In this document: piece after piece, positions 2,496 to 62,437 of the stretch | Layout: each line of letters opens with the position of its first letter | Position numbering within the stretch: the stretch's first letter is position 1 | Origin: Eledone cirrhosa | Lineage: Eukaryota | Reading direction: 5' to 3' | DNA: 64,000 nt | Assembly: GCA_964016885.1 (NCBI GenBank) | Contig: OZ024743.1 | Coordinates: 313,534,001 to 313,598,000 of the forward strand | Made by a program: the position numbers and the translations under genes | The notes under the pieces: model-generated | What the model was told of the DNA's origin: nothing | What the model saw: only the letters and a program-made list of their open reading frames with translations | Database searches by the model: none

Positions 2496-2569
2496 GTCCC
2501 GTAACTCAGGAGTTATGGGACCATTCATACGGCGTTTCTTGGGCATTTTAAGCATGGCAGAGCCCATCC

Positions 2570-2712
2570 CTCTACATGCCTAAGTATAGCAGATTTCTTC
2601 CCGAGAGAGATAGAAAATGAGAGAGAGAGAGGGAAAGAATCGATCCCAGTAGTAGACTGGTACTTTTTTCTCGACCTCCAAGTGATGAAAGGCAAACTGA
2701 CCTCGGCTGGAA
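2570..2712 (-). mobile_element. Partial tRNA-derived SINE (octopus OK-like family)
   Basis: Matches the recurrent motif ctggtacttt..tcgacc..gatgaaaggcaaa..gacctcggc seen in many copies in this window. Confidence 0.6.
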
Positions 2713-3420
2713 TCGCTCCTTTGTCAGTGTTGAACAAACGAGCAACGATGGTTGCTGGACACTACGGCTTAATACGGGATGTTTGTTTACAAACACACCA
2801 AGCATTATAATAAATGTTCGGTGAATCTATACGTACATATATATATGTGTGCATGTATGTATATATATACATACTACAGCACGTCTGTATACATATATGC
2901 ATGTACGTATACATACTTATATTTAATTAACAGCCGTACTAAGAGTGAGAAATGAAATTTCGTTTCATTTTTTCCATTTATCGTTTTCGGTGCGCCCGGC
3001 CGATTAACTCACTCGATATGCAAATTAGGGTGCTCAGCCGTTAATATGCATAAGGAAAGTATATACTTTCAGCCGTTCAATCATCTGTCAGGAAGGTATA
3101 CGGTGCTGACGATAGCTAATAAGCTTGGAACTAGTACATCGTTCCTTTGTAAGCGTTGAACAAAAGCGCAACGATGGTTGCTAAACACTGTACGGCTTAA
3201 TTCGGGATGTTTGTTTACAAACACACCGAGCATTATAATAAATGTCCGTACGTACATTTATTATAAATCCATACGTACATATATATATATTTGTGCATGT
3301 ATGTATATATATACATACTACTGTACGTCTGTATACATATATGTATGTACGTATACATACTTATATTTAAGTAACAGCCGTACTAAGAGTGAGAAATGAA
3401 ATTTCGTTTCATTTTTTCCG
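2712..3420 (+). mobile_element. Retrozyme-like/PLE-type element: ~426-bp monomer with long terminal direct repeat and internal hammerhead
   Basis: 2712-2980 is repeated at 3138-3420; the hammerhead lies at 3100-3142; a further fragment of the family is at ~4285-4340. Confidence 0.75.
3100..3142 (+). ncRNA. Type I hammerhead ribozyme motif (one core mismatch, GGAA for GAAA)
   Basis: acggtg-CTGACGA-t.agct-aata-agct.t-GGAA-ctag-TA-catcgt: 6-bp stem I, stem II, palindromic stem III, GUA site. Confidence 0.75.
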
Positions 3421-3429
3421 TTTATATAT

Positions 3430-3836
3430 ATATATAAAGTTATAAATATAAACTATCGCCGTATTTTGACTAAAGAAATTAAAGAAATGATTTAGCCTGA
3501 TAGTGGGGTTAACTTATAATACGGTGATAGCTTATATTTACAATTTCAAATTCGCTCGCTGTTTCGAAAATATTCTTACTTGACATTACAGTTGCTAAGA
3601 TTATAGCTTCTAATTTGAATGGAAGAAGACGGGTGATGTGTTGGTGTAATGGTAGCATAGTGGTCTGGATAACCAAAGATGTGGTTTCGACTCCCATGTA
3701 CGTCAATACTTATCTTTTTCCATTTCTCCGAGGGTTCTTAACCCCACTATCAGGCTAAATAATTTCTTTAATCAAAATACAGCGATAGCTTATATTTATA
3801 ATTTCAAACTCGCTCGCTGTTTCGAAAATATTCTTA
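3430..3836. mobile_element. (TA)n-embedded element: ~258-bp permuted monomer with direct repeat plus inverted 5' arm, containing a tRNA-like gene
   Basis: 3517-3578 is repeated at ~3775-3836; 3440-3511 is the reverse complement of ~3740-3800; same family as 58842-59062. Confidence 0.7.
3635..3705 (+). tRNA. tRNA-like cloverleaf (anticodon loop CTGGATA), probably an element-borne Pol III module or pseudo-tRNA
   Basis: Acceptor GATGTGT/GTACGTC, D arm GTGT-AATGGTA-GCAT, anticodon arm GTGGT-CTGGATA-ACCAA, T arm GTGGT-TTCGACT-CCCAT; TTTTT ~10 nt downstream. Many G-U pairs. Confidence 0.55.
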
Positions 3837-3900: not shown

Positions 3901-4341
3901 AATACATTAATAAATGATATTAAAATATATTAGATTAATCAATACATAATACATTAGAATTATTGATAGCTTTAACTAGACGTAAATCCAGAGAACGTAT
4001 ATCCAGAGAATTAAATAATTGGATACGCATTACTATAAAAGTCTGCAACTGGGAGACAAGATAAAATGGGTCGCTATCATATTTGAGCCCAGAATATAAC
4101 TATGTACAACATATTCCCTGCAACCTCTCTCTCTCTGATGCGAGGGAAAAAAATGTTCAGAAAGCCTCTTTATTATCCTCATAATTCCAAGATCAAATCT
4201 ATCAATACTGATCAAGTGATGGAAAGCAAGCAATATACGTATATATATCATATATAAGTCTAATATATATATATATATATATTAGGTATCAGCCGTACTA
4301 AGAGTAGGCAATGAAATTTCGTTTCATTCTTTTCCATTTAT

Positions 4342-7952: not shown

Positions 7953-8864
7953 ATACACACGCACACATACACATATATATATAATTTATTTTACACAGCA
8001 GAAAGTTGTTATAGATGATATTTAATATTCACCGATTTAATGTGATAGAAAATGTGCAATGTTTTAATAGCCAAGAGAAAGTGATACACATTTTAAACAT
8101 CAAAGCATAAAACAACATCAACTCTTCCTATATTGTCTTTTCAAAGTAGAGAATTCCGAAATGGTATCGAACATAACGAAAATGCAATTACTATATTCGT
8201 ATATACGGGGGGGGGGGGGGGGGCATATTTTCTTTCAGACATCTATTAATAAAAAAAGAATAATAATATTAAAAAACGCTACCATGTTCTGCTTTTATCT
8301 TTCTTCTTCGGTGTTTTCATATTTTCATATAATTCCCTTGCAGCTTTTAACGTTCAATAATTTGTTCATACTATTATTAAATATATATATACAGTGAACG
8401 AAATGACTATAGGTACATCCATAGAAGTATACATAAATATATCTATTTAAGTATACTCAGTTTATACAGTGATATATGCGCAATATTGCTGTTAGTTATA
8501 AACGTTCGATGCTTGTTAACTACATAGGTTCTAATTCACTGGATACCTTTCTAAGGAAGTGTCTTTGCTATAATCTCGGGTCAACTGAAACCTTGTGAAT
8601 AAAATCGGTCTGGGTAAAAGTTTGTGAAAGCTTGATGTATGGAGTGCACCTATTATTTCATGTTTAGCCTCATCATATATTGTGTCCCGCAGGATTCAGC
8701 CTAGGAATTGCATGAAGGGTACACGTGCTTGTTGAATACTTAATCACGTACACGTTAGATCAGAAGTAGGACGTTCAGTTAATCGTAATAGTAGAATATT
8801 CATCGTTGAAATCAACAGAGGATTAATCAGCATTTAATTATATATTGCCTCGTCCAATATTCTT

Positions 8865-9020
8865 GAGAGCAGCGAATTGGCAGAGTCGTTAGAACGTCGA
8901 ATAGAATGCTACGCGGTACTCTTTTCCGCTTTTTTGGGGGTGAGTTCAGATCCCCACGAGGTCAACTTTGCTTTTCAACCATTCGTGTCGATAAAACATA
9001 TCAGTCTAGTACTGGAGTCG
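8865..9020 (+). mobile_element. tRNA-derived SINE (OK-like), diverged
   Basis: tggcagagtcgttag A box, gagttcagatcc B box, gaggtcaactttgc body. Confidence 0.7.
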
Positions 9021-10063
9021 ATTCATTTTGTAAATATCTTTCTCACTTCCATTCTTTTCACTCTCTATCATTCTCTGGAAGATATCCGCTATATTCTGAT
9101 CTGGAGAAGAAATGGACTCCACCATAGTATAAATAATGCCCTAGTTACGCCGTATGTCAATTTGGTGCCCCTGAAATGACCTCACCAATTATGGGTCCAT
9201 ACCTACATACTATATACTCGAGAATTTGAGTTCAATTGCTGCTTGACTTGTGTTTCATAATTCTAGATGTTGATAAATTAGTACCAGTAACAGTGCAGTG
9301 GTCGGTTTAACCCTTTTCACAGCAAATTACCTCTGTGTCTACGATACTAAGCTGTTCATTTCAATGTTTTATATTTATCTAAATACTGTCTATCAAATAG
9401 CTTCTAATTTAAATACCGTGTAATTTTATGTAAGAATTGTTGTAAGTTATGTTCCAAACAAATATTTAAATTTCAACGTTAGTTACATGTGTATTGCTAA
9501 ATCATTTCCAATTCTTGGTTTTCCTCAAAATTATTTGAAAATAATCACGAATTTGGTGGTGTATTTCTCTATAGAAGGGTTAATTGGAGTCAGTAGAATA
9601 AACACAACTATAATACTTTATCAGAAATCATTACTGAAAATCAATTAGCGCTAAATTATCAACTGTCTAATTAATATTTATGTCAGTTATTTGCAAAATA
9701 GTATTTAATGTATTAATGTGACGACAAAATTAACAAAAAATAATGTTTGGGAAGTAAAAAGCACGAACGCCATATGTAATTGCTGACGAAGCTACAACTC
9801 ATATTAAGAAGTAACTTCAATTACTTAAAAATTATGTCACGTAATTTAGATGATATAATTAAAACGCCGAAAACTTCTGTTAAACATTTAATTTGATAGT
9901 TATGAAATATTTCAGATAGTACTTAATGATATTGTTTTAAAACATTTTTTAACGACAATTCATTTTTAGAGAATATATTTCATCAGCTACCCACACTTCA
10001 AGAGTTGAGGACAAATTATAGAATGAAAATTAAATTTTAATATTGCTTGTTTTAAAATTTCAT

Positions 10064-12820: not shown

Positions 12821-15800
12821 CTACAGGCTTATATAGAGAGAAGACCTAACCACTCGGGCTATCTTTGCCACATTCACCCACCTTTTATAAAATCTGCTGG
12901 GGTACAGCACCTCACTCTCCATCCTGATGCTTCTTCCAAAATGATATTTGAAAAAACGAATCAGCTGCTCGCCGGGGAGAAAGGTGTCTGACCTCAGCCC
13001 TTTTAACCTCGTCCACCATATAACCTCTTTCATCATAACCATAACACATAGGAAAACCGCCTCTCCCTCGTTTTTGAAGGAGGGTGGCGGTTTGATCATG
13101 AAAATGGATTCGGTGGTCAACTGGATTGGTCCCACTCGCGACAATAGTCGTTCTACATAGCCCCACAGGCCGGTAACGCCCAGGCAGTGTACAAATGCTT
13201 GCGCGACGGTTTCCTCGTCGCGCACGCATCTCGGACAGATCTTTTACGAAGGGTCCCTGCCCGGGCGCCTATGTCTGTAGAGCTTATCTCGAACTGGTAG
13301 AGCTCCTCGGTAGCACTTCCAGGCCAGGGACTTTTGGAAGTTTACCATTGGTCCCGGGCGGAAGGTCCTACCGAACAGACAGGTCAGTTCGTCCTCCTCT
13401 ACGCCTAGAGTTTCTCCGAGCGTGTCATCGCACTTGCTGCGGACCAACCCTCTATAGAATGTCGAAGTGGAGACTCCACTGATCACCGGATCCGTTTGCC
13501 AGAGGAATGTGAGCGCTTGAGCACATTCGATGTGCCAGTCACCCATTTTCCTCGGTCTTTGCTTGACCCAGGACTGCAGCTCGGTCAGCAAGACGAGTCG
13601 TGGGAAGGCTCGCCTCACGAAAGGGAGCCCACACCGGCTGTCCGGTGAGGAATACGTGGAGGTGCCGCAGCCTGAGCGCGTGTTTGCGCATCGTCAGCCA
13701 CAGCATCCCCAGCGCCCCGTTGGCCACAGATGGATCTTCTCACCAAAGGAGCCCATTTCTTCCAAAGGAATTGGAAAAGCGCGCGCTCCATTTTGGTGAG
13801 CTTTTTGGCTGGACAAGGCACGATGGTCAAGCGGTAGTAGATGACGGATGCTATAAAAGTGTTCGCCACCTCGGCTCGACCTTTCAAGGATAGTTTGCAC
13901 TCGGCCCCCGTCTGGGTGAGCGCAAACACCTTGACCGTTACCTCGTTCCAGTTCTTCTCCACCTGGAGGTCCTGACCAAACCAGACCCCGAGCAGCATTA
14001 CCGGTTTCCGTCCAGCGTCCGACGACGACATCGGAAGGCATCGGTGTGTCTCGCCATGTTCCGAGTTTCAAACCGACGGACTTGTCCCGATTCAGCTTCG
14101 CTCCTGTGAATCTTTCGTATTCCTCCAGTAAGGTGCCGACCTCCCCGATTTCCAAGGTGCTCGACACCATTACTGTCATGTCGTCGGCGTAGGCTGACGC
14201 TGCTTTTCGCAGTAGTGGCTCGAGAGTCAGTACGTACAGAAGGGAGGAGAGAGGGCATCCCTGTCGGATGGATCGCGTGATATGTAACGGATCCGAGATG
14301 TAGCCGTTCACCTTGACTCTTGAGCAATGTTGCTGCTGTGCATTGCAGCAATCCAGCCCCTGAACAAGGGTCCGAAGCCTGCCGCCTCGAGCACCGCATC
14401 CAGATAACGATGGTCAAACCTATCGAAAGCCCCTGACTAATCCAAGTTGAGCAGGGCCTCACCGAAGCCGGGTTTACACCCTACCCTCTCTATGATGCAT
14501 CGCATGAGGTGGAGGTTGTCGTGTATGGACCTGGTCGGGATTGCGCATGTCTGCGCTTCTCCTACCAGCCTCTTTGCCAACACCTTGGCCAAAATTTGTA
14601 ACTCTGTGTTTAGCAGAGTTATGGGCCGGAAGTTGCCTATGTCATCCCCCTTATTCTCGTCCTTCCTGACTAACGTTACTACGCCCTTGGTCACATAACT
14701 GCCAGTTGCAGTAGACCGCTTCCAGGAGACCGGAGAACATGTCCGGCATTGCTACATAAAATTCGTAGGGTAGACCGTTGAGGCCTGGAGATTTGCGTCT
14801 GCCGCATTGGCTCAGCGCGTCCCCTATCTCAGTGGCCGAAATCGGCCTTTCGCAGAACTTTGCCTCGCTCTACGAGAGTCGCGGTAGGCCGTCGAGGTAT
14901 GGACCGAAATTCATAGCCCCTCCCGGCGCGCCGCCCTGCCGGAACAGTTGAGCAAAGTGCCGCTGAAAGGCCACGCACATCTGCTTCGGCTCACGTATCA
15001 CGCGTCCGCCTTGGTCCTTCAAAGACCGAATCGTGGACTTGTTGCCACTCTTCGCCTCCGTCACACGGGCCCAGCTAACAGCTTTGGCTCCCTCGTTTCC
15101 CAGAGCACGTATTTTGCTTCTGACAACGCAGCCTTCATGCTTTGCGTCGAAGAACTGATCCAAGGCTGTTCTCGTCGCTAGCACGCTGGCTACGTTGCTA
15201 CTCCTAAGTGCCTCTTCTACTTTATCTACCAGTTCCTTTTCGGTTTTAGTTCTATCTAACACTAATTCTTTACTAAAACCTATCGAATCTAATCTAACTG
15301 CCCTCTTGAGAGAGTACCACCACATGTTGTTGACAATGGCGCCGGTCAAGTGCTGCTTAACTAAAATGCTAATCCGTCTCCTGTAGGCTTTGCATGTCGG
15401 TGACGACAAGTTCAGCTTCCAGTATCCGGGTCCCTGTCTATGGGCTTTGTCAAGGTTGACTAAGTAGGTCACTAATTTGTAATCTGAATAGGCAACCATG
15501 AACATTTGTGGACAGCTTAACATGTCCCTATCCTTCTTTCTAACTAGAACCCTATCTAGGTACGATCTAGATTTTCCGCTGAGATTAGTCCACGTCCACA
15601 GTGGCACAGTCGGAAAATCTAGTCGATAACTATCGGCCAAGTCAAATCGGCCGATTAACTGTTTGAGGCTGTTACACCACCCCTCTATCGGGACATGCTC
15701 CCACATAGTCCCAACGTGCATCTAGGATTCTATTCCAGTCCCCCACTAACAGCAGGGAGCGGGACGTTCCCAGAAAAGTTGCTAGACGTTTGAAGAAGTC

Positions 15801-16150
15801 TGGCCCCGGTGTCCCAGATGGGGCATATGTGGCCACCAGCCTGAACGCTCCACCTTCACTACCGCCAACGTCTAGGACCACCAGTCGACCCTCCGGGTCC
15901 AGATGTACCGTCTGTGTTACGAGGTCCAGGTGTTTCCGCAGCAAAACGGCAACCCCACCCTACCTCCCGGCTGACTGAGAGATGCGTAGATCTCAAAGTC
16001 GTCGAAGATGGGAGCCAGTTGTCGCTCACTGTGGATCCTGGACTCGCAAATTACTACTACATCCATACTGTGCGACCTGAGGTCGTTTAAGAGTTTGCCC
16101 TGTTTTCAGGGCATCCCCAGGCCGCGTACATTCACACATCCATCTCTTAT
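12821..16150 (-). pseudogene. Tx1 ORF2 (APE endonuclease-RT), frameshifted with deletions
   Basis: Split over ORFs 15672-15944, 14870-15721, 14437-14694, 13694-14311, 13615-14031, 13244-13618 and 12821-13225, each matching the 41621-44083 or 40930-41511 proteins. Confidence 0.9.
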
Positions 16151-16199
16151 ATTGGCCAAGTTGGTGCTGAAAAGTTAAAAGAAGAGGAAAAGAAATCAC

Positions 16200-17114
16200 T
16201 CACCTCTTCGTCTCCTGGGGACCAGGTTGCACAATTTCCATGGAGGTGTTGGGGGGGGTTGTTTGGTGGGGTGGTGGTCTCAGGTGGGATGTGGACGGAG
16301 ATGTTTGGTGGAGAGGGGGTGTCTGGTGGGATGGGGGTTTGACGCAGGGGTTACCTACGTCGTTATGAAATTTTTCTTTTAACTGTTTATGTGTGTCCAT
16401 GGAGGTCCTAATCATTTTAAGATTAGGATTCTCCGAAGAGTGTGTAAAGGTTTTCCCTTCGGTCTCCACCGAAGGGCTTTTATATATGGTGTCTGTTAAA
16501 GTTTTATCGTTAGTATTTATGTAGGTGTAACATTTTTGTTGTGTTGTGTTGCTTTTTGTCTGTGGTTCTTGTGTGTATTTACGTTTTGTAGTAGGTGTTT
16601 TGTTTTCAGGAGTGGGTGTTTTTGTTTGTGCTGTTTGCGTCGCTTGTCTTGCTGTTTGTGTATTTGTTGCATTTTTGTTTGTGTTATGTCTTTTCTTTTT
16701 TCTTTTTACTGGTCGGAAAGGCTCTCCCTCATCGTCACTGGGTGACGATGATGAAGCCTCATCTGTGTTGTTGGGGAGGGTTACATTTTGGGGAGCTGTT
16801 ATGTCTGTGGGTGTTTCTGGAGTTGTTTTAGGTGGGGAGGGCTTGGGTGTGACTGTGTTTGTCGTTTGTTTTGTTGTCACTATTTTTTTATGTTGTTGTT
16901 GTTGTTGTGGTGGTGGTAAATGTTGTGCTGATGTTGCAGGTGTTGGCAGTAGTGCCTTTTTGGGGCTAGTTAGCCGAGGACAGGAAGCTCTCAGGTGACC
17001 GCTGCTTAAGCAGTGGTAACATGAGGGCCGCCTACCCTCGACCGAAATGTTTATGTATATAAGCCCATCCAGCAGCACACGTTCCTGGATCCTAGCTATT
17101 CGTTCTGGTGTCAT
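16200..17114 (-). CDS. Tx1 ORF1 C-terminal part (CCHC zinc knuckle + Thr/Pro-rich region)
   Basis: VEGRRPSCYHCLSSGHLRASCP; homologous to 38832-40649. Confidence 0.8.
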   Translation of the reverse strand: MTPERIARIQERVLLDGLIYINISVEGRRPSCYHCLSSGHLRASCPRLTSPKKALLPTPATSAQHLPPPQQQQQHKKIVTTKQTTNTVTPKPSPPKTTPETPTDITAPQNVTLPNNTDEASSSSPSDDEGEPFRPVKRKKKRHNTNKNATNTQTARQATQTAQTKTPTPENKTPTTKRKYTQEPQTKSNTTQQKCYTYINTNDKTLTDTIYKSPSVETEGKTFTHSSENPNLKMIRTSMDTHKQLKEKFHNDVGNPCVKPPSHQTPPLHQTSPSTSHLRPPPHQTTPPNTSMEIVQPGPQETKR

Positions 17115-17940
17115 TTGGACCAGATCTTCCAGGCTAGTTCCGCTGAACAGGTCGCCGGAGGACTTACCTACCGATATTATATAGTCTTTTTCGAGGTTTA
17201 AAAATCCACATAGTACCCATCAAATATCAATATTTGGTGTGATACTTTGGATTTTTATTTTCTGTGTTCTTTTCCCCATGTAAGTGGGGAAAAAGGTGAA
17301 CAGCGGTGACACAATTTGCGACACAGAATATTTCTCTGCCGTCAATTGGTCTTTCATTAGAATGGATAAACTCCCGTAGAGCCTACCCTTCTGAATAAAA
17401 GCAATGTATTTATATATATATATAGAGAGAGAGAGATAGATAGATACATAGATAGATATAGTGTTGAACACTGTAAGAGGAAGTGAACAAAGTGATGTAG
17501 TTCCATAATTTTACGATCGTTTCAGCTTAGGAGACACGTAGTTGTAGGTTAGTCGACGATGTAAGCGTAAATCCATGTATCCAGCATCGAAATGTACGAG
17601 CTCTGTGAAGGCTTCTTTATGTATATATAAATATATAACATATTTAGTGGTTATGGTGTTGGGCGTAACATCCTGAGTTCCTCGTTTGATTTCTAGACAA
17701 AGTACTGTGTTTGTTTCCTTAATTATTTCCTTTTGCTCCAATCTCTGCAACTGAAAGACAATACTTTGAGACGTTTGAAAACACTGACAGCCAAATGGAT
17801 GACTCTTGGTATCCTCAATCACTCTGGTAGATTTTCGTCTGGAAGAGGCAAACGCATGGTCAGTCAATCTGTTGTACGTAGCCCATGACCAGTCATCTAT
17901 GAAGGTGACTCTTTGACACACACACAGACACACACACACG

Positions 17941-28061: not shown

Positions 28062-31000
28062 TTGCTCGAAATGAATACTGATAATAAAAGCAATTCAACT
28101 TTATCAAACAGTGAACTCCAGCGGCGACGGCGGGCAGCCAGCAATGAAGAAAAACGGGCCGAACAGCGCCATCGGAACGCCGAACCTCAGAGGCGAAGAC
28201 GTGCGGCCATGAATGAAGAGTTTAAAATACTAAGTATGTGGGTGGTGAAGGAGACCGAGGTAGATTACTGCGCAAATATTCGCGGCAAATTAACAATTCA
28301 TTAGCTTTAGCATCGCAGAGAGTTAGTGAGATGTTTGAGAGTGGAGCATGGCAACCGAATGTAGTCATTCAAGGCCGTTTGTATCATTGTATCGGTAATT
28401 TAGAAGTTGCCCCAGGAGAGAGGCCTCGATTCGCTCAAATTTACGTTAACGATCCAGATTATAGTGAATTGGAGGAGGATATCAGGATCGGTTGGATGAA
28501 GTTTCCGGGAAATATAACTGAATTGGAACGGCAAAGGTTAAGTGATTTGATCCGTTATTTACAATCATGGCTTAGACAGTGTAATCCTTATGTTATGGAT
28601 TTCATGTTGGTGGCTGAACTGCAAAATGTTCAGCAGCAAACATTGGTGATTAAGGCTGACGCCGTGCCAAGGAATCAACACGGACGGCGATAAAATGTCC
28701 CTGAAGGATTTCGTGAAGTTGCTGTGTTGATGGACGATAAGCCTGGGTCGAGAGATATCGTCCCCAATCGCAGAGATGGTGGTCTCAAGACTATCAATGA
28801 GTCAAATAGGGCATACGATCAATTGCATTATGTTCTTTTATTCCCAAAAGGTGAAAATGGATGGAACCTGTCTGTTCATTTAGATGATCATGAGAATCAA
28901 CATCAACAGGAAGGTGGCAATAGACACAATAATTCGATTCGCGACTTTTACGCGTTCCATTTGAACGAGAGGAATCAACAGAGAAATGCGCTATTTCAAG
29001 CCAGCAGATTGTTCCAGGAATACTGTTGTATGGCATTCGCAAAGATCGAAAATCAAAGGCTAAATTATATAGCTACACACCAGCAACATATCAAAGCTGA
29101 ATTGTATAATAATATACAGGATGCAATTACAAGCAAATTGGTCGACGCATTATTTTGCCATTGTCGTTCATCGGCGGCCCGAGATACAAGAACATTCGCT
29201 ATCAGGATGCAATGGCTATTGTCAGAAAATTTGGAAAGCCAGATGTGTTTATAACGGTTACATGCAACCATGAATGGACTGATATTAAAGATGCACTTTT
29301 GCCAGGACAACAGCCAACGGACCGTCCTGATATTGTGGCAAGAGTATTCAAAGGATATCTGAAAAAGATAATGGATGATGTGGAAAAAAAAGGAATCTTT
29401 GGAGGTATAGTTGCTTTTACATACGTAATTGAATTCCAAAAAAGAGGATTGCAACATGCACTTTGCTGATCATTTTACATAGAGATTGCAAATTGAGATG
29501 TGCTGAGGATGTCGACAGCATTGTGTGTGCTGAACTGCCGGAGAATGAGGCACTACGCAAATTGGTGGCAAAGTCAATGGTGCACAACCAATGCGGAGTG
29601 GCAAATCGGAAAGCGCCTTGCATGAAAAATGGCCAATGCAGTAAGCACTTTCCGAAATCTTTTGTCACGAACACTTCCTGGCACGATGGGGATGCTCATC
29701 CCTCATACAGAAGACGGTCGCATGCAGATGGCGGTTTGGTCGAAAATGTAAACGGTCGACAGGTTACAAATCAATTGGTTGTGCCATACAATCCATATTT
29801 GATTATGAAATATCGTTGTCATATTAATGTGGAAATTTGTAGCCCAGTCAAAGCTTGCAAATATCTATTCAAATATGTTTACAAAGGTCATGATCGGACA
29901 ATGATCAATGTCAGGAATGAGGAAGCGAACCAAGGAGATGGAGTTGGCAGGTTCCAGGATGTTCGCTCGATTGGATCTAGCGAAGCTTGCTGGAGATTGT
30001 TCGATTTTGATCTCAATGAACGCAAACTCAGCGTTCAGAAACTGACGGTTCACTGAAAGAATAGTCAAATGGTCTGTTTTCAGGACACTAGAAGAGGTGT
30101 CGAAAGAATTGCTAACGCACCACCTCCTAAGACGGAATTGACTAAGTAGTTCAGGCATAATAGGGAACATGCTTTGAACCCGGATCAAAGGCAACTCTAC
30201 TGCGATTTCCCTTCGCACTATACGTGGGATAAGCAGGGAAAGAAATGGAATTATAGAAAACAAATATTGAGATTCATGACTAATGGACGGGTTTGTAATG
30301 CCCATCCAGCACCTGGTGATGTGTTTTATCTCCGAATTCTGTTGCATAATGATTTTCGAGAGGTAAACAGAGCTTCGCTGATTTGAAAACAATCAATGGC
30401 GGGGAATATGAAATATACCAGGCTGTGTGTCAGCATCTGCGACTCCTTCAGGATGACGCTGAATGGAATAACGTCATGGAAGCTGCAGAAACAACACAGA
30501 TGCCAGCTCAAATGAGGCAGTTGTTTGTCACGATTCTAGGATTCTGCAATCCTGCCGATCCAAGAGAGTTATTTGAACGCCATTGGAGAATTATGGCTGA
30601 TGATTTTAGGCATAATCTTCAGGTCGATGATGAAAATTTGATGAAAGCTATTGTTTTGCTCAATATTGAGCAACTGCTTGAAGTTCATTTCAAATGTTTA
30701 AGAGATTTCAATTTGCCAATTCCTGATGAAGAAATGCGACAACGTGTCTTAGCATTGAACATGAGATTGCAGCTTAGACGGTTGCCTCTCGATCGAAGGG
30801 AACTATTCCAGTTTGATCCACTGGAACGGCAACGTATTGTGGATGAACGTATGGCAATGTTGACCCAATCTCAGAGAGAATTTTGTCGATGGCGTTCTCC
30901 ACTCGATTTCCACTAATGAGCAACTTTGTGCTTTCATAGATGCTCCAGGAGGCACCGGAAAGACATTCTGTTTCAACACTATGTTATCGGCAGTCAGAGC

Positions 31001-32238
31001 ATAGAGGAAGATTGCTCTCCCTTTGGCCACCAGTGGGGTCGTTGCCACTTTGCTGAATGGTGGAAGCACCTTCCACTCATGTTTCAAGGCTCCATTGGCT
31101 CCGGATGAGTTGAGTGTCTGTAACATTACAGGACAAAGTGAACTCGCGGGCCTTATACGCAATACGTCTCTGATTATTTAGGAAGAGGCTCCAATGGCAC
31201 ACAGATATTTGCTGGAGGCATTGGACAGAACTTTGAGAGATATCTGCGGTGGTGACCTGCCATTCGGTGGTAAGACTATCGTTCTTGGTGGCGATTTCAG
31301 ACAGGTGCTACCAATTGTAAGGAATGCTCAAAGAGCGCAAATTGTCGATGCATGTCTGAAAAAGTCCCCGTTGTGGCGCCATTTCAGAGTTTTGCGATTA
31401 CACAATAATATGCGACTTCGTATGTTCGGGCAAAACGTAGAGGCTGAGACATACGGCCGATGGTTGATGCAGTTGGGAAACGATGAATTGCCACACGTTG
31501 GTGATAATCAGACTGTAAGAATCCCAGACCATTTGGTCATGCCACTGGACCGCCAAGCATTGATTGACTGGGTGTTCCCTAATTTGAATGCTTTTTGGCA
31601 GAATATCTCCTGGATATGGGAACGCGTTATTCTAACTCATACGAATGCAACGGTCGATGAAATAAATTCACAAGTAGCCGGAATGTTTCCTGGAGAGGAA
31701 TGGTTGACCGTCAGTGCAGATGCAATGGAGCATAATCAGCAGAACAATATGGATGTTCCGACTGAGTATCTGAATTCACTTCAAATACCCGGATTTCCCC
31801 CCACATATTTTGAGGTAGAAAAATGGTATGCCGATTATATTGCTTAGAAATATCAATCATAAAATGGGTCATTGCAATGGTACCAGATTGATTGTTGAGA
31901 GATTGATTAACGGAAGAGTTTTAGAAGCTGAACTCCCAGGCAGAGAGGAATCGGTTCTCATTCCGAGGATCATGCTGAGACCAAGTGAAGATCTGCTGCC
32001 ATTCACTTGGCAAAGTAGACAGTTTCCCGTCAATTTGGCCTTCTCCATGACTGTCAACAAGGCACAGGGACCGACTTTCAAGCGAGTCGGTGTCTACCTG
32101 AATGATCCAGAATTCAGCCATGGGCAACTGTATGTTGTTGCATCTCCAGTGTGCGATCCTGATGGTATAACATTTGCAATTGATACCACTAACAGAGGAA
32201 CAACCCTGAATATTGTCTATAATGAAACTTTGTGCTGA
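28062..32238 (+). pseudogene. Helitron Rep/PIF1 helicase transposase, multiple frameshifts and stops
   Basis: Rep motifs GKPDVFITVTCN, YVIEFQKRGLQHA (HUH) and KYLFKYVYKG (Y2). Helicase motifs DAPGGTGKTF, GGDFRQVLP, QFPVNLAFSMTVNKAQG, FSHGQLYV. Confidence 0.95.
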
Positions 32239-38210: not shown

Positions 38211-38831
38211 AATTTTGAAGTCAGAGAGCAGACAGCCGGCCTGGTTCACACGCGTTGTTCTCGCCAACGTTGTAATAATTCGCCATCATACACATCAGAC
38301 ATATGCTCGTATCTTGACTACCTTACGGGTATATTATTGGAATTTCAAAGAATATAATGTATTTTATTTTAATATAAAAGTCAATAATTTTAAAAGGAAA
38401 ACATCTTTAAAATGTTTTTGCTTTCAGTTTATTAAATATTTAAGTCAATTATTTGTTTAGTTTGATTTACTATCCAAGAAAAACTCAAATACAAATAATG
38501 GCGAGGAATATTTAAATATTTTGTTATATCCGATTTTTATAGAACACATATATCAACTATAATATCTATATATATATTATAGTTGATATAAGTGCTCTCT
38601 CTCTCTCTCTCTCTCTCTTTCTATATCTATCCATCTATCTATCTATCTATCTATCTTGATAGAGTAAGACACGCTTCACATCGGCTCCGCTATTCCATCG
38701 GGATTTACCCTTACTATTGTAAGTACAGGATAAATTTTTCAGTGCAACACATTTGGAACACTAACCCCTGTTATTTAGGGAAACATTTTTGCATTTACCC
38801 CCTTTTTAGGGGGTAAAATAAATATCTAATT

Positions 38832-40649
38832 TTGCCGAAAAATTTCGTTCTTGGCAGCATGGCGGAAAAGATGGCAGACATGTCTGCCATTAGCTCTGCC
38901 ACGCCCCCCAAGTCTGAAGAACAAAAAATAATTACAACAAAATTAGACAACGAAACAAACAAAGAAAATGAAAAAACAAATGTTAAGGAAAATGAGCAAA
39001 CGGAAAACAAACAAACAGAAAATAATACAAATAACAACAGGGCAACTTTCGCCCAGAAAACAAAACAATCCATTACATACACACCAATTGACCTAACGGC
39101 CGCCAGAGAAAAACTGGCCGAAGCAAAGAAACACATTGTTTTGGGGGAAAACGGAATGTTTTCCATTAACTCCTCCCCAGAATTCAAGAAAGCGAGAACA
39201 GAGAACACAGTTCTCTTCAGAACAATCCTAAACCAAACAAGAAAGCCAGCACAGCCCAGCCAAATGGAGATAGAGTTGGTCCTAAAAGACTATATGAAGA
39301 ATATTCTCTTCATACGAAAGGACCGACTCTATGGCAGCATTTCGGTCCTAACAAAAGACAAGGAAACGGCGGAGAAGCTTTCCATAAGCCCACTCTCATC
39401 GACAACATACAGCTTCTATCCCTCCTACATGGGTAGAAGAACACAGAGAGTAAAAATACAAACAATGCTGCCCACAATGGACTTCTGGTGGGCTATTGCT
39501 GGCTTCATAGACATGGGCGAGGACACAGTGCTGTCAATGGGGAAGGCATCCGGAGATGCGTTCCTGGGAATGGGCCTCGACCTACTAGTCCAAATGAGGC
39601 CCGAAAGAATAGCACAAATCCTGGATCGCATCTGGCTGGATGAGCTCACCCCAATAGATATAATTGTAGAGGGGAGAAGACCAGCATGCTATTTATGCAC
39701 GGAAAGGGGACACATTAAGGCTAACTGCCCGAAACGTATCCCCCAAAAAGGACTATTGCCCACACCCACCACAAACAGTACACCAACACCACCCACCTCC
39801 AAAAATACACTAATACCACACACAGCAAACAAAATACAAACACCACCAAGCACAACACAAACATCACCACCACCAGCACCAACACAAACACCACCACCAC
39901 CATTACCAACCACAAGCACGACACAAACAGCACCACCACCACCACAAAACGCATTCCAAACAAATAATTAAAAAAACAGCAACAAATCTACCCCTCCCGC
40001 AAAAAAACAACAACCAGACACGACGTCCCTCCCACCTAGCGCTGAAGAGTTTCCCCCAACTTCTGAAGAAGAAGGAGGAGAAGCCTTCAGACAAGTTAAA
40101 AGAAAAAAAAGAAAGCACACACCCAGCACACCACAAATAACCCACACACAAACACCAACTCCAATAAAAAACACCCCACCCTCAACAAACAAAAATAAAT
40201 CTGCGCCTCCCCTCTCCGAAACATTGACAGCATCACAAAAAAAGACATTGCAATACACATATATAAATAAAGAAAACAAAAAACTGTTTAAATTAATAAA
40301 CAATAGCCCTTTGGTGCAGACCGAAGGGCCAAACTTTATCTCAACAGAGAACTTCACCCATTTAAAAATGATAAAGGTCCCTCTGGACCTTTATCGTTCC
40401 TTAAAAGAACAATTTAGACAGGACGTGAGCCCCCCCCCCTGTTTAAAACCGTTAAATCGCGTCCTCTTGAAAGATTTCCCCATGACCTCCCCTCTCCCTG
40501 ACACAACTCCAAACACCCCAACCCCACCACACTCGGGCACCCCCACACCACCGCAAAACATCCCTCCACCCAACACACCTGAAGCCATGGAAATTACACA
40601 GCCCAGAGAGGTAGGTGCTTTTCTTTCTTCACTTTCAACACCAAAATAG
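38832..40649 (+). CDS. Tx1 ORF1 (gag-like, CCHC knuckle), interrupted near 39970
   Basis: CYLCTERGHIKANC knuckle. The downstream ORF 40224-40649 is homologous to the C-terminus of copy A ORF1, implying a disruption in the A-rich linker. Confidence 0.85.
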
Positions 40650-40654
40650 ATCAA

Positions 40655-41511
40655 TTGAGAGTTGGCTGTTTGAACGCGCGTGGCCTGGGCTCAGCTTGGA
40701 AGCAAGCAAAGCTACTAAGTGACCTCAGGTCACGAAGTATAGATGTGATGGTTGTTTGCGAGAGTCGGATCAGCAGCGTGCGACAGCTGGCTCCCGCCTT
40801 CGATGACTTTGAGATGCACGCATCTCTCTGTCAACCCGGAGGCGGGGGGGGGGAGTTGCCGTACTGCTGGATAAACGTCTGGCTCTCGACGTACAGATTG
40901 TTCACTCGGACCCGGGGGGTCGATTACTGGTGCTGGACGTCGGAGGCGGTGAAGGCGGGGCTTTCAGACTGGTCGGTCTTTATGCCCCCTTCGGGGCTGA
41001 AAGAGCCGACTTCTTCCAGCGACTGGAGACTTTTCTAGGAACGTCGCGTTCCCTGCTTTTAGTGGGGGACTGGAATGGAATCCTAGATGCGCGTTGGGAC
41101 TATGCAGGGGCATGTCCCGATAGAGGGGGGTGTAGCAGCCTCAAGGGGTTACTCGATCGATTCGACCTGGTCGATAGATTTCGACTAGATTGTCCAACTG
41201 CGCCAACCTGGACCTGGGCAAACCGCAGTGGACAATCTAGATCGTACCTAGATAGGTTTTTGGTTAGGAGTAAGGATAGGGACGTATTTAGTTGTCCAGA
41301 ATTGATCATGGTTGGCTATTCAGATCACAAATTAGTGACCTGCGTGGTCAACCTTGATAGAACGCATAGACAGGGTCCCGGTTACTGGAAGATGAACTTG
41401 TCCTTGCCGGCAAAGAAAGATTACAGGAACCGGATTAGTGGCTTAGTTAAGATGCGGTTGACGGGAGCGATCGTCAACAGTAGGTGGTGGGTATCTAACG
41501 AGAGAGATTAG
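40655..41511 (+). pseudogene. Tx1 ORF2 APE endonuclease domain (frameshift in G-run ~40845)
   Basis: CLNARGL, VCES, LYAP, VGDWN, SYLDR, YSDH, GYWKMN motifs. Confidence 0.9.
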
Positions 41512-41620
41512 AGTAAGTTCGATAGGTTACAGTAAGGAACTAGCGGCGAATAGAAATAGGAAGGAAAGGGAGTTAACAGATAAACTAGAAGAGGCGATTA
41601 GGAGCGGAGACGTAGCCAGA

Positions 41621-44083
41621 GTGTTAGCGGCGAGAACGGCGTTGAGCCAGTTCTTTGACGCGAAGCACGAAGGCTGCGTTGTCCGAAGTAAAATACGTGC
41701 TTTAGGAAACGAGGGGACCAAAGCTGTTAGCTGGGCCCGCGTGACAGAAGCCAAGAGTGGGATTAAATCCACCATTCGGTCTTTGCGAGACCAGGATGGA
41801 CGGGTGATCCTTGAACCTGAGCGGATGTGCGAGGCCTTTCAAAGGCACTTTGCTCGACTGTTCGGAGGGGGCGGGGGGCCGGACGCGGATGTGGACTTCG
41901 GTCCATACCTCGACGGTCTACCGCGTCTTTCGAGCGGCGAAGCGGAGTGCTGCGAAAGGCCAATCACAGCCACTGAAATCGGGGAAGCGCTCAGCCAATG
42001 CAGCAGACGCAAATCTCCGGGTCTCGATGGTCTACCATACGAACTTTATTTAGCTATGCCGGTCTTGTTCTCCGAACTCCTCGAGGCTGTCTATTGCAAC
42101 TGGCAACAGAACGGGAGAATTCCCTGTTCTGTGACCAAGGGCGTGGTCACGCTAGTGAGGAAGGACGAGAGCAAGGGGGACGACTTAAGTAACTTTAGGC
42201 CCATAACTCTGCTGAATGCAGAGTTACAGATTTTGGCCAAGGTGTTGGCGAAGAGGTTGGCGCTTGTGGTGGGTGGTTTGGTGGGAGACGCGCAGACATG
42301 CGCTATCCCGTCCAGGTCCATTCACGACAACCTCCACCTCATGCGATACATCATAGAGAGGGTTGGCAACGAACCCGGCTTTGGTGGGGCCCTGATCAAC
42401 TTGGATCAATCTAAGGCGTTCGATAGGGTCCACCATGGTTACCTGGATGCGGTGCTAGCGGCGGCGGGCTTCGGACCCGTTTTCAGGGGCTGGATTTCTG
42501 CTATGCACAGTGGCAACATCTACTCTAGGATTAAAGTAAACGGCTACGTCTCGGAGCCGTTTCAAATCACCCGGTCCATCAGACAGGGGTGCCCCCTCTC
42601 CTCCCTTCTGTACGTATTGACTCTCGAGCCACTGCTGCGGAAGTTTGAGTTGCTGCGGGGCATACCCCTGGAACCGGGATTGCACAAAGCGGTCTCGGCC
42701 TATGCCGACGACATAACAGTAATGGTGGCGGACGCCTCGGAAATCGGGGCGATCGCCACCCTACTGGAGGAATACGAAAGGCTGACGGGGGCTAGGCTGA
42801 ACCGGGACAAGTCAGTCGGTTTGCAACTCGGAACGTGGAGGGGCAAACCGATGCCGTTAGACGGTGTAGTCGGGCGGTGGACGGAGGGCCCGGTGAAGCT
42901 GCTCGGGGTCTGGTTCGGACCGGACCTCCAGGTGGAGAAGAATTGGGGCGAGGTGACGAGCAGGGTGTTTGCGCTGACCCAGAAGTGGGCCAAGTGCAAA
43001 CTATCACTGAAAGGTCGGGTGGAGGTGACGAACGCTTACATAGCGTCCGTCATCTGCTACCGCCTGACCGGCGTGCCTTGCCCCAAGGAAAAGATCACCA
43101 TCATGGAACGCATGCTCTTCCAGTTCCTCTGGAAGAAGCGGCCTCCCATGGTGAGGAGATCCATCTGCTGCCAGCACCCTTCGAAAGGAGGGCTGGGTAT
43201 GCCGTGGCTGTTGATGCGTAGGCGCGCATTGAGGCTACGGCATCTACAGGTATTCCTCACCGGTCAGCCGGTGTGGGCCCTGTTTGTGAGGCGAGCCTTC
43301 CCACAGCTCGTCTCGCTCACCGAGCTGCAATCCTGGGTGAAGCAAAGACCGAGAAAACTGGGCAACTGGCACACCGAGTGTGCCCAGGCGCTCACGGCTA
43401 TCTGGCAAGCGGACCCGACTGTCAGTGGAGAATCCACCTCGACATTCTATAGAGGGCTGGTGGCTAGCAGGGGCGACGACACCCTTGGAGAGTCGCGAGG
43501 CATGGAGGAGGACGAACTGGCCAGACTGTTCGGTAGAACTTTCGGCCCGGGACCCATGGACAACTTCCAGAGGTCCCTAGCCTGGCAGTGTTACCGGGGG
43601 GCTCTGCCCGTTCGAGAAAAGCTCTACAGACACGGGCGCCCGGGCAGGGATCCAGCGAAAAAGATCTGTCCCAGATGCGTGCGCGACGAGGAAACCGTTG
43701 CGCATGCACTGGTACACTGCCCGGGCGTTGCCGATCTGTGGGGCTACGTCGAACGACTGCTGTCGCGTGTGGCGCCGATTCGATTAACCGCCGAGTCTGT
43801 GGTGAACATCAAGCCGCCGCCTCCCTTCAGAAACGAAGCAGAGGCGGTCTTTTTGTGCGTAATAGCCATGATGAAAGAGGTTGTGTGGTGGACGCGCCTG
43901 AAAGGTCTGAGGTCGGGTGACTTTCTCTCCGGCCATCACCTGGTTTACTTCTTCCGATACCACTTCGGAAGAAGGATCAGGATGGAGAGAGAAGTGCTTG
44001 GCCCCAGACAGTTTTATGAAAGGTGGGTGAAAGAAGCGAGAATGGCTCGTGTAAATGGGCCTTCTCTCTACATTGTTCTGTAG
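41621..44083 (+). CDS. Tx1 ORF2 reverse transcriptase + C-terminal zinc finger (820 aa open)
   Basis: KSPGLDGLP, RPITLLN, LDQSKAFDRV, RQGCPLS, AYADD, KLLGV, GGLG, CPRC..ETVAHALVHC. Confidence 0.97.
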   Translation: MLAARTALSQFFDAKHEGCVVRSKIRALGNEGTKAVSWARVTEAKSGIKSTIRSLRDQDGRVILEPERMCEAFQRHFARLFGGGGGPDADVDFGPYLDGLPRLSSGEAECCERPITATEIGEALSQCSRRKSPGLDGLPYELYLAMPVLFSELLEAVYCNWQQNGRIPCSVTKGVVTLVRKDESKGDDLSNFRPITLLNAELQILAKVLAKRLALVVGGLVGDAQTCAIPSRSIHDNLHLMRYIIERVGNEPGFGGALINLDQSKAFDRVHHGYLDAVLAAAGFGPVFRGWISAMHSGNIYSRIKVNGYVSEPFQITRSIRQGCPLSSLLYVLTLEPLLRKFELLRGIPLEPGLHKAVSAYADDITVMVADASEIGAIATLLEEYERLTGARLNRDKSVGLQLGTWRGKPMPLDGVVGRWTEGPVKLLGVWFGPDLQVEKNWGEVTSRVFALTQKWAKCKLSLKGRVEVTNAYIASVICYRLTGVPCPKEKITIMERMLFQFLWKKRPPMVRRSICCQHPSKGGLGMPWLLMRRRALRLRHLQVFLTGQPVWALFVRRAFPQLVSLTELQSWVKQRPRKLGNWHTECAQALTAIWQADPTVSGESTSTFYRGLVASRGDDTLGESRGMEEDELARLFGRTFGPGPMDNFQRSLAWQCYRGALPVREKLYRHGRPGRDPAKKICPRCVRDEETVAHALVHCPGVADLWGYVERLLSRVAPIRLTAESVVNIKPPPPFRNEAEAVFLCVIAMMKEVVWWTRLKGLRSGDFLSGHHLVYFFRYHFGRRIRMEREVLGPRQFYERWVKEARMARVNGPSLYIVL

Positions 44084-44528: not shown

Positions 44529-44831
44529 TAAATTAACAGATTATAATTTAAGCAAAGAATCGCTGCTTTCACCCTCAACGGGATCTTCTGATATATATAT
44601 ATATATATAATAACTGTAATCTGAGTTTTTCGAATATTAATAATAACATTCGATTCGTTTGCAATTATGCAATTTTTTAGCCATATCAGTAGAATGAACC
44701 CTTCATTCTTGCTCTTGTGTTGGCATGTAAACAGAACTGCAGACACTAATGTTTCTGGGTATCACCTGCCAAACTGTCAGAGCTATGAAAATATATGCTA
44801 TTTTCAAAAATACACAGTGACTAATCGGCTT

Positions 44832-44924
44832 GATTTGCATATTAGCAGACTGGCTGATCAGTCAGATCTGCATATTAGCAGATCCACTGATCAGCCAGAT
44901 TTGCATATCAGCTGACTGGCCAGA
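44832..44924. repeat. 33-bp minisatellite (~2.8 copies) containing ATTTGCAT
   Basis: gatttgcatattagcagactggctgatcagtca / gatctgcatattagcagatccactgatcagcca / gatttgcatatcagctgactggcca. Confidence 0.75.
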
Positions 44925-45503: not shown

Positions 45504-45935
45504 TTAGTTGGGGCCATCCGGGGGTACCCATGCGGAGAGTGTGCACTCTCGCTGGTGTCTACATGTCATGGTGATATCCGATTTCAGGTTGACTGTGTCA
45601 TCCTTTAATCTCACTATCTCCATGGCCTCGGACAAACATAGCCTGCACATCCTCTCACCGGCCGAATATGCACTGGCACGTTGAACGATACTCCAGTTGA
45701 GATCATACGTGGTGCCGGTGTCCTTCAAGTCCCATATTAGATCCACCAGCCTAGTGGAGTGTGTCTTGTTCCGTTCCTTGAAAGATTTCGTGTGATTGTA
45801 CATCCTCGATTTAAAGGTCGTGGATGCTGCGCCGATGTAGGTGCGCTTGGTGTTGTGCGTGTTAACCACACATTTATAAACGATGCTCTTCGTTAGGCAT
45901 ATTCCATGCAGAGGGCATTGTTGCAGGTTCGGTCT
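45504..45935 (-). CDS. Penelope-like element GIY-YIG endonuclease domain (Neptune-type), 5'-truncated
   Basis: In-frame upstream extension gives CPLHGICLTKSIVYKC..TYIGAASTTFKSRMYNHTKSF..IWDLK..CRLCLSE..N.KS....CRH. Confidence 0.9.
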   Translation of the reverse strand, partial: RPNLQQCPLHGICLTKSIVYKCVVNTHNTKRTYIGAASTTFKSRMYNHTKSFKERNKTHSTRLVDLIWDLKDTGTTYDLNWSIVQRASAYSAGERMCRLCLSEAMEIVRLKDDTVNLKSDITMTCRHQRECTLSAWVPPDGPN

Positions 45936-46575
45936 GTATTTTGCTCATTCCTAACGCTGGGTTCTGGCCTTATTACGGCGTTCTCTCTATTCTCTGCGTG
46001 TTTCTCGCCGCTGGGCCCTTCCCTGTCTGGCGTGTACACTATGGTTTATGTGTAACCGGCCCTGGGCAGTGCCTCATTACAATAATCGGCGTGCTGGTTA
46101 AACTCGTCTGCGTGTACTTTTTTTGTAATTTTCACGCACTTCCTCACGTAATATTTCGTTGTGCACTAAATGACGTACAGCATCATATGCATGCTTATAT
46201 ACACTTTCCAAATATTTTTGTGCAGTTTATTTTCATATATGTGCGTATGTGTGTGTGTATGTCTGTCTGTCTGTGTGTGAGTGCGTATATGGGTGTGTGT
46301 GTGTATATGTATGGATGTGTGTATATACAAGTACACACACGTATATGTATGTGTGTGTGTGTGTGCGTGTGCATGTACACACACACACATATATATGTAT
46401 ATATGCACATATATATATGCATATGTGCGTATATATATGCGTATGTGTATGTGTATGTGTATGTGTATGTGTGTGTTTGTAAGAGTAGGCTTGACTGAAT
46501 GCATATGTAAGCGTGTGTGTGCAAGTATGGGTGAGCATAGATGTGTGCGTATGTATGTACATGTGTGTAAATATA

Positions 46576-58706: not shown

Positions 58707-59062
<356 letters not shown>

Positions 59063-62087: not shown

Positions 62088-62437
62088 ATATATACAATAT
62101 ATTAACAAATGGAAACTATATTTATAAAACCATATTTATTTCATTATACATATTTCAAGGGCCACGAAGGCAAACTATGGTGCGCTTTCATCGGATAAAA
62201 TATAATATAGGTTAGTTTTATGAATAAATATTGACATACCCTGAAAATCCCAGGAGATTCCAACCAGAATGGTTGCATTTTTTCAGGGTATGTCAATATT
62301 TATTTATTAAACTAACCTATATTATATTTTATCTGATGAAAGCGCACCATAGTTTGCCTTGGTGGCCCTTGAAATATGTATAATGAAATAAATATGGTTT
62401 TATAAATATAGTTTCCATTTGTTAATATATTGTATAT
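62088..62437. repeat. Palindromic element (~158-bp arms, ~30-bp spacer) next to (TA)n
   Basis: 62088-62247 is the reverse complement of 62278-62437. Confidence 0.92.
62325..62390 (+). ncRNA. Type I hammerhead ribozyme with canonical core
   Basis: tattttat-CTGATGA-aag.cgcacca..tggtggcc.ctt-GAAA-tatgta-TA-atgaaata. The mirror copy at 62137-62202 (-) has CCGATGA. Confidence 0.8.

Follow-up and report, generated by a model that had tools for sequence, protein, structure and literature searches.

Within a 64-kb window of Eledone cirrhosa DNA (64,000 nt, the whole stretch analysed here, with positions counted from its first letter), which is animal-like in character, microsatellite-rich and home to SINEs, Helitron pieces and LINE-type reverse transcriptases (RTs; Pfam RVT_1, E 3e-24), we examined a 714-nt insertion that adjoins a truncated SINE and amounts to 1.6-1.7 units of a repeat with a predicted hammerhead ribozyme. 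The features of the locus and the evidence for each are as follows, where X1, X4, X5 and X6 denote public runs whose contigs were compared with it.

About 2526 to 2713, minus strand: SINE without its head, which we take to be of tRNA type and octopod origin, ending inside the B-box region and having its last 2 letters in common with copy A (blastn, alignment with 6 window copies).
2712 to 2981, plus strand: copy A, a partial unit (pseudo-LTR) of haplotype alpha (blastn, alignment, run haplotypes).
2943 to 2979, plus strand: hairpin a short way inside the right end that the copies share (fold of -9.2 kcal/mol; present in copies A, B and C).
2967 to 3006, plus strand: head-to-tail joint from the unit's right end to the unit start (recurs in X1 and X4 contigs).
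2982 to 3136, plus strand: the part of the unit that is single-copy at the locus, with the hammerhead at its end (covered from 2982 by contigs of X1, X4 and X6 and from about 3016 by those of X5).
3085 to 3153, plus strand: type I hammerhead with its core at 3100-3142 and an outer helix I (3085-3096/3144-3153) beyond an internal loop (sequence, descriptor, contigs).
3136 to 3137, plus strand: predicted self-cleavage site GUA/C, after A3136 (hammerhead consensus).
3137 to 3425, plus strand: copy B, of haplotype beta, ending at the shared right end and followed by (AT)n (blastn, alignment, run haplotypes).
About 4236 to 4341, plus strand: copy C, short and left-truncated, sharing the right end of copy B and likewise leading into (AT)n (blastn, alignment).

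Copies A (2712-2981) and B (3138-3425 in this comparison) are direct repeats, 87% identical by blastn with gaps; in their alignment 251 of 270 aligned bases agree, with 19 substitutions and 18 gap columns. Measured from cut to cut (2711-3136) the period is 426 nt, and counted as 2982-3425 it is 444 nt, which bears out the direct repeat with a period of about 426 nt proposed by an earlier, sequence-only reading of the window and gives a unit of roughly 430-440 nt. No open reading frame of at least 120 aa lies within 2712-3425. Both free right ends in the window, those of copies B and C, coincide and enter (AT)n (2/2, a small sample), and the hairpin just inside this end may be a candidate signal for the start of reverse transcription. 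No target-site duplication was found at the six right ends tried. The head-to-tail joint into 2982 recurs, with different letters, in X1 and in X4, where it is marked by a loose end at 3004, and in X1 208 contigs extend past one or other end of the compared stretch; the joint is therefore common to other copies, and the duplication, whose uniqueness to this locus the sequence-only reading had named as the outcome that would speak against it, is not unique. Near the unit start, at 3020-3027, stands the octamer word ATGCAAAT, which is presumably a promoter element and which occurs again in a small repeat at about 44830-44905 on the minus strand.

Our picture of the family comes from the window together with the contigs of four of 24 listed public runs (four organism codes, four studies, contigs only). 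On positions 2982-3430, 5896 contigs were placed in X1, 346 of them only in part, followed by 11, 10 and 11 in the other three runs. Three segments at two sites in the window and 5896 different contigs in X1 make this a family of many dispersed copies; contig depth is no measure of copy number, and depth on the two flanks of the cut was set aside as evidence because it cannot rank the parts. The comparison between runs left out 3263-3430, so that the unit's right end was judged from the window copies alone. The three small runs may come from relatives, or from samples with traces of one species. Exact-pattern scans found no match in viral contigs, metagenome contigs or prokaryote genomes.

The hammerhead, as read from the sequence, has a helix I of 6 bp (3100-3105/3137-3142), CUGACGA at 3106-3112, a helix II of a U.U pair and 4 bp closed by the loop AAUA (3113-3126), GGAA at 3127-3130 where GAAA is canonical, and a helix III of C-UA-G within the palindrome ACUAGU. 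The established hammerhead consensus places the cut after GUA. A descriptor written after the motif had been seen matched once in the window and never in 400 shuffled 64-kb windows. Rfam hammerhead models gave no match to the window copy, with its mutated core, at E values up to 10, and an unconstrained fold of the locus does not adopt the hammerhead; Rfam matches to miRNA and snoRNA models were rejected as falling below threshold and tracking AT palindromes. At position 3128, A accounts for 1235483 of a depth of 1235755 in X1 (116 contigs) and for all depth in X4, X5 and X6. With A in four of four runs, the family core reads GAAA, and G3128 is a mutation private to the window copy; the CUGANGA/GAAA/NUH core is thus present in the family and broken in the window copy. 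The 6-bp helix I, 4-bp helix II and short palindromic helix III are those of canonical metazoan type I hammerheads, with whose architecture, as given in the available part of the published description, the motif agrees (PMC4209133).

Polymorphic positions, counted from the variants listed, nine further rows lying outside the listing, and leaving aside five sites private to the window copy and five unconstrained positions (N7 and loop II), number 0 of 26 in the core and helices II and III and 28 of 190 in the flanks (Fisher p 0.02). The only two variable positions of helix I, 3103 and 3139, are pairing partners, although their phase is not readable. In the outer helix I, whose register was partly chosen by hand, 10 of 10 pairs form with the family-majority letters compared with 8 of 10 in the window copy; all ten also form in one X5 contig (assigned by equal depth) despite four further changes, and the commonest X1 variant at 3147 breaks one pair to leave 9 of 10. 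Judged by this conservation, the predicted ribozyme is genuine at the level of the family, its core intact and conserved, and the window copy is a mutated member. The hammerhead at 3100-3142 with a predicted cut after A3136 had been recognised in the sequence-only reading, and it stands.

Other hammerhead-like sequences were also noted. A third, more distant variant of the family occurs in contigs (X5 record 17 and rows of X6 and X1, over 3016-3237) with changes of its own in the outer helix I. Elsewhere in the window, at 62325-62390, a second motif of the form CUGAUGA...GAAA has an 8-bp AT-rich helix I and a weak helix II; it has no Rfam hammerhead match.

To the left of the insertion, base 2711 is A, whereas the cut is followed by C, and six of six other window SINE copies carry at that place the AT found here at 2712-2713. 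As the C is absent and the AT is common to the SINE, the edge of the repeat falls at the second to fourth base after the cut, within a 2-nt microhomology with the SINE; it would be the fifth base if the SINE resembled the copy at 8850-9180, which reads ATC. The repeat had been described as starting within 1 nt of the cut: its edge does adjoin the cut, but the first base is missing. It had also been described as interrupting the SINE, which we do not confirm, as the SINE is truncated rather than split. No SINE head was found to the right of the insertion, where the best nearby match is 17 nt at 4081 (E 0.84). With the head missing and no target duplication, DNA was lost at insertion or later. 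A literature search on the SINE motif returned unrelated matches only.

A random end would fall within those four bases with a chance of 0.9% per end, and at least one of six ends would do so with a chance of 5%. Among the six left ends seen, one lies at the cut (copy A). The others are copy C, whose edge is far downstream of the cut, X1 record 6 at 3077 (309 letters fail to fit), and X5 ends at 3021, 3085 (merely 15 loose letters) and 3129; four of the six include the uncut site. No pile-up of molecule starts or ends is listed in the contigs, a test of low power, and none of the 12 rows listed out of 134 has a loose end at 3137-3141. This contig test of ends is weak because junction contigs overlap the repeat little and no more than 346 of the 5896 X1 contigs were placed in part. 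Contigs that end at 3135, 3138 and 3140 were not taken to mark ends of the element, as these points lie about 30 nt from variant sites, like assembly branch points. The locus was picked for the coincidence of edge and cut. The position of the left edge beside the ribozyme cut suggests, without proving it, that the RNA copied into the genome is cut RNA.

The two halves of the insertion belong to different haplotypes. Haplotype alpha has 3139G, 3165C, 3167A, 3184G, a 2-nt gap at 3189 and 3202A, and haplotype beta has 3139T, 3165A, 3167G, 3184A, no gap and 3202T; X4, X5 and X6 each contain both (rows matched by equal depth). Copy A is alpha at five of six sites, the miss being T2713, a letter also supplied by the SINE, and copy B is beta at five of six, the miss being a private letter at 3167. 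Rolling on one circle gives halves that are identical at insertion, and such halves are not found here, so it is more likely that the template was a mixed multimer or that the RT switched templates; later gene conversion of the halves is possible.

In the available parts of their description, metazoan non-LTR retrozymes (Cervera & de la Pena 2020, PMC7229834) resemble this family in having short, non-coding, head-to-tail units of low GC (here a partial tandem, with the joint in X1 and X4) and a type I hammerhead with a short palindromic helix III, including a U.U pair at the base of helix II like that of the axolotl retrozyme motif HHR_Amex2. Compared with them, the present unit of 426-444 nt lies at the upper end of their 150-450 bp range, one hammerhead is found at the locus, there is no target duplication, and RNA circles are, for this family, a prediction. 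Non-autonomous Penelope-like elements (PLEs) and their pseudo-LTRs, again as far as the accessible portions of the sources go (PMC8557442; bioRxiv 10.64898/2026.07.22.740005), share with the locus a truncated copy before the full unit, a fixed right end, a (TA)n target without clear target duplication, and a hammerhead inside the repeat; their 30-40-nt 'tail' was not recognised in this repeat. At our locus the corresponding features are the partial tandem and the right end fixed at an AT-rich target in both window copies that show one. The preprint's rule for an active copy, in the part seen, is at least two consecutive complete hammerheads; our locus has one, and no contig spans the unit. Taken together, the locus is most probably the decayed remnant of an insertion by a non-LTR retrozyme or non-autonomous Penelope-like element that is present in many copies (probability of the class about 0.9). 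No partner PLE sharing the repeat sequence was found in the window, and a PLE-like fragment at 45.5-45.9 kb does not match it. The literature searched holds no description of this hammerhead-repeat family, though published supplements may list one; the supplements of PMC4209133 (all but one file) gave no octopus, squid or cephalopod match. Cephalopod hammerheads as such are not new, with 235 Rfam hits given for giant squid in the consulted part of PMC6962438.

The insertion might have arisen as follows. A mixed array would be transcribed and its RNA cut only in part, because a helix III this short would make for inefficient cutting except when two copies pair; ribozymes of this kind are described, in the passages available, as acting mainly as dimers (PMC4209133; PMC7229834). 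A Penelope-like RT/endonuclease acting in trans would nick AT-rich DNA, and reverse transcription would initiate internally on the RNA, at the fixed right end (3425), pass through an uncut hammerhead or jump to a second RNA, and finish by running off an alpha unit at the 5' end made by the ribozyme, which is the uncertain step. The cDNA end would then lose 1-3 nt and join the SINE through the 2-nt microhomology, with loss of target DNA. We hold the whole chain, including run-off on ribozyme-cut RNA as what set the left edge, tentatively and at a little under even odds. In its favour, copies B and C share their right end and enter (AT)n, as would be expected from the internal initiation and AT-rich targeting reported for PAc, a Poseidon element of Anolis, in the part of that study available (PMC11167929), and the edge falls within four bases of the cut. 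PAc also differs, in that the RT-EN is encoded by the element itself and RNA ends were not found at its cut, unlike what is hinted at here: no RNA-seq reads ending at the cut are reported in that part of the study, and ribozyme mutants insert equally well. These PAc results count against the run-off step, as do the five left ends found elsewhere, the lack of a listed pile-up and the choice of the locus for its coincidence.

The same observations give weight to an explanation that keeps the element class and drops the run-off, in which the edge results from simple 5' truncation, or from a deletion that later took away the SINE head together with the beginning of a longer array, joined by microhomology, and its nearness to the cut is chance. 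The 2-nt microhomology, the missing SINE head and the absence of a target duplication fit it, as do the other left ends and the lack of a pile-up; PAc, in the portion of the study at hand, uses uncut RNA (PMC11167929), and roughly one copy in 100 of a large family would look like this one. The low chance per end speaks against it, as does the abundance of linear cut monomers and multimers described for retrozymes of other animals in the accessible text of PMC7229834, from which ends at the cut site would be expected. We regard this explanation as a serious one, somewhat short of an even chance.

Two further explanations are much less probable. The sequence-only reading had an RT travelling about 1.65 times round one 426-nt circular monomer, and the length of the insertion agrees with that figure; the period and the head-to-tail layout would suit a circle, circles have been proposed as the template for retrozymes and PLEs (PMC7229834 and PMC4209133, in the parts available), and circle folds gave z-scores of -5.1 (2711-3136) and -6.6, or -3.2 without the AT block. 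Such folds are ordinary here and were discarded as evidence, as 3 of 25 random window pieces fell below -5.1 and 7 of 25 below -3.2. Moreover, copies A and B differ at the sites that mark the two haplotypes of X4, X5 and X6, and a circle has no 5' end, so that a stop at the cut is not explained by the circle itself; a single circle thus appears improbable. A local segmental duplication around a chance hammerhead-like motif would account for the lack of an Rfam hammerhead match, the mutated core of the window copy and the free fold without a hammerhead. It is very improbable given the intact and conserved family core, the joint in other copies, the different haplotypes of A and B, and a descriptor that found nothing in the shuffled windows.

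For the reading of the locus as a retrozyme or Penelope-like insertion, the class is already known, so that the locus alone is of modest interest, and what it offers is a lead to a family that can be counted. Because the family has numerous copies, marker haplotypes and a fixed right end, one assembly would allow two counts, namely left ends relative to the cut, and identical versus mixed halves, the latter setting a circle against a multimer or template jump. That a real share of this large family's copies begin at the cut and join units of different variants strikes us as rather doubtful. If it were so, the genome would record a Penelope-type RT that initiates within RNA and either runs off ribozyme-cut templates or jumps from one to another, and would offer direct evidence on the part of the hammerhead in Penelope-like transposition; in the portions of the sources seen, its function in these elements is called unclear (PMC8557442) and it is dispensable in vitro for PAc insertion (PMC11167929).

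Several neighbouring elements were recorded in the window. A fragment of a GIY-YIG endonuclease of Penelope-like type at 45504-45944 on the minus strand (Pfam E 0.021, below the cut-off; Atlas 0.96 to GIY-YIG-named clusters) is frameshifted, has a stop at its end and resembles a Penelope-like element with a C-terminal EN, which suggests that the genome contains Penelope-like elements. Downstream of the fragment a relaxed scan gave no hammerhead core, and the fragment has no confirmed relative in viral contigs. Adjoining copy B is a second repeat (3427-3836) with two truncated pieces, one inverted (3437-3512) and one direct (3518-3578), and a longer unit that bears a tRNA-like segment at 3634-3706 (Rfam 40.3 bits; ARAGORN tRNA-Ser) and ends in (TA)n; its relative at 58839-59062 (58.8-59.1 kb) is a palindrome. 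This repeat has a Penelope-like layout with no hammerhead seen and may be a non-autonomous element that carries a tRNA. A T-rich word with the ending CCATTT occurs in similar form in both repeat families (2967-2981, 3714-3727 and 59008-59021), forming the right end in the hammerhead family, and may be either a shared RT signal or chance. Further along the window lie a broken Helitron Rep/helicase at 28226-32238 (Helitron_like_N E 2.7e-9, PIF1 E 3.5e-32) and two related LINEs, at 38817-44083 on the plus strand and 12821-17219 on the minus strand, with an ORF1-like frame, an endonuclease and an RT; the LINE frame at 41462-44083 is open for 873 aa.
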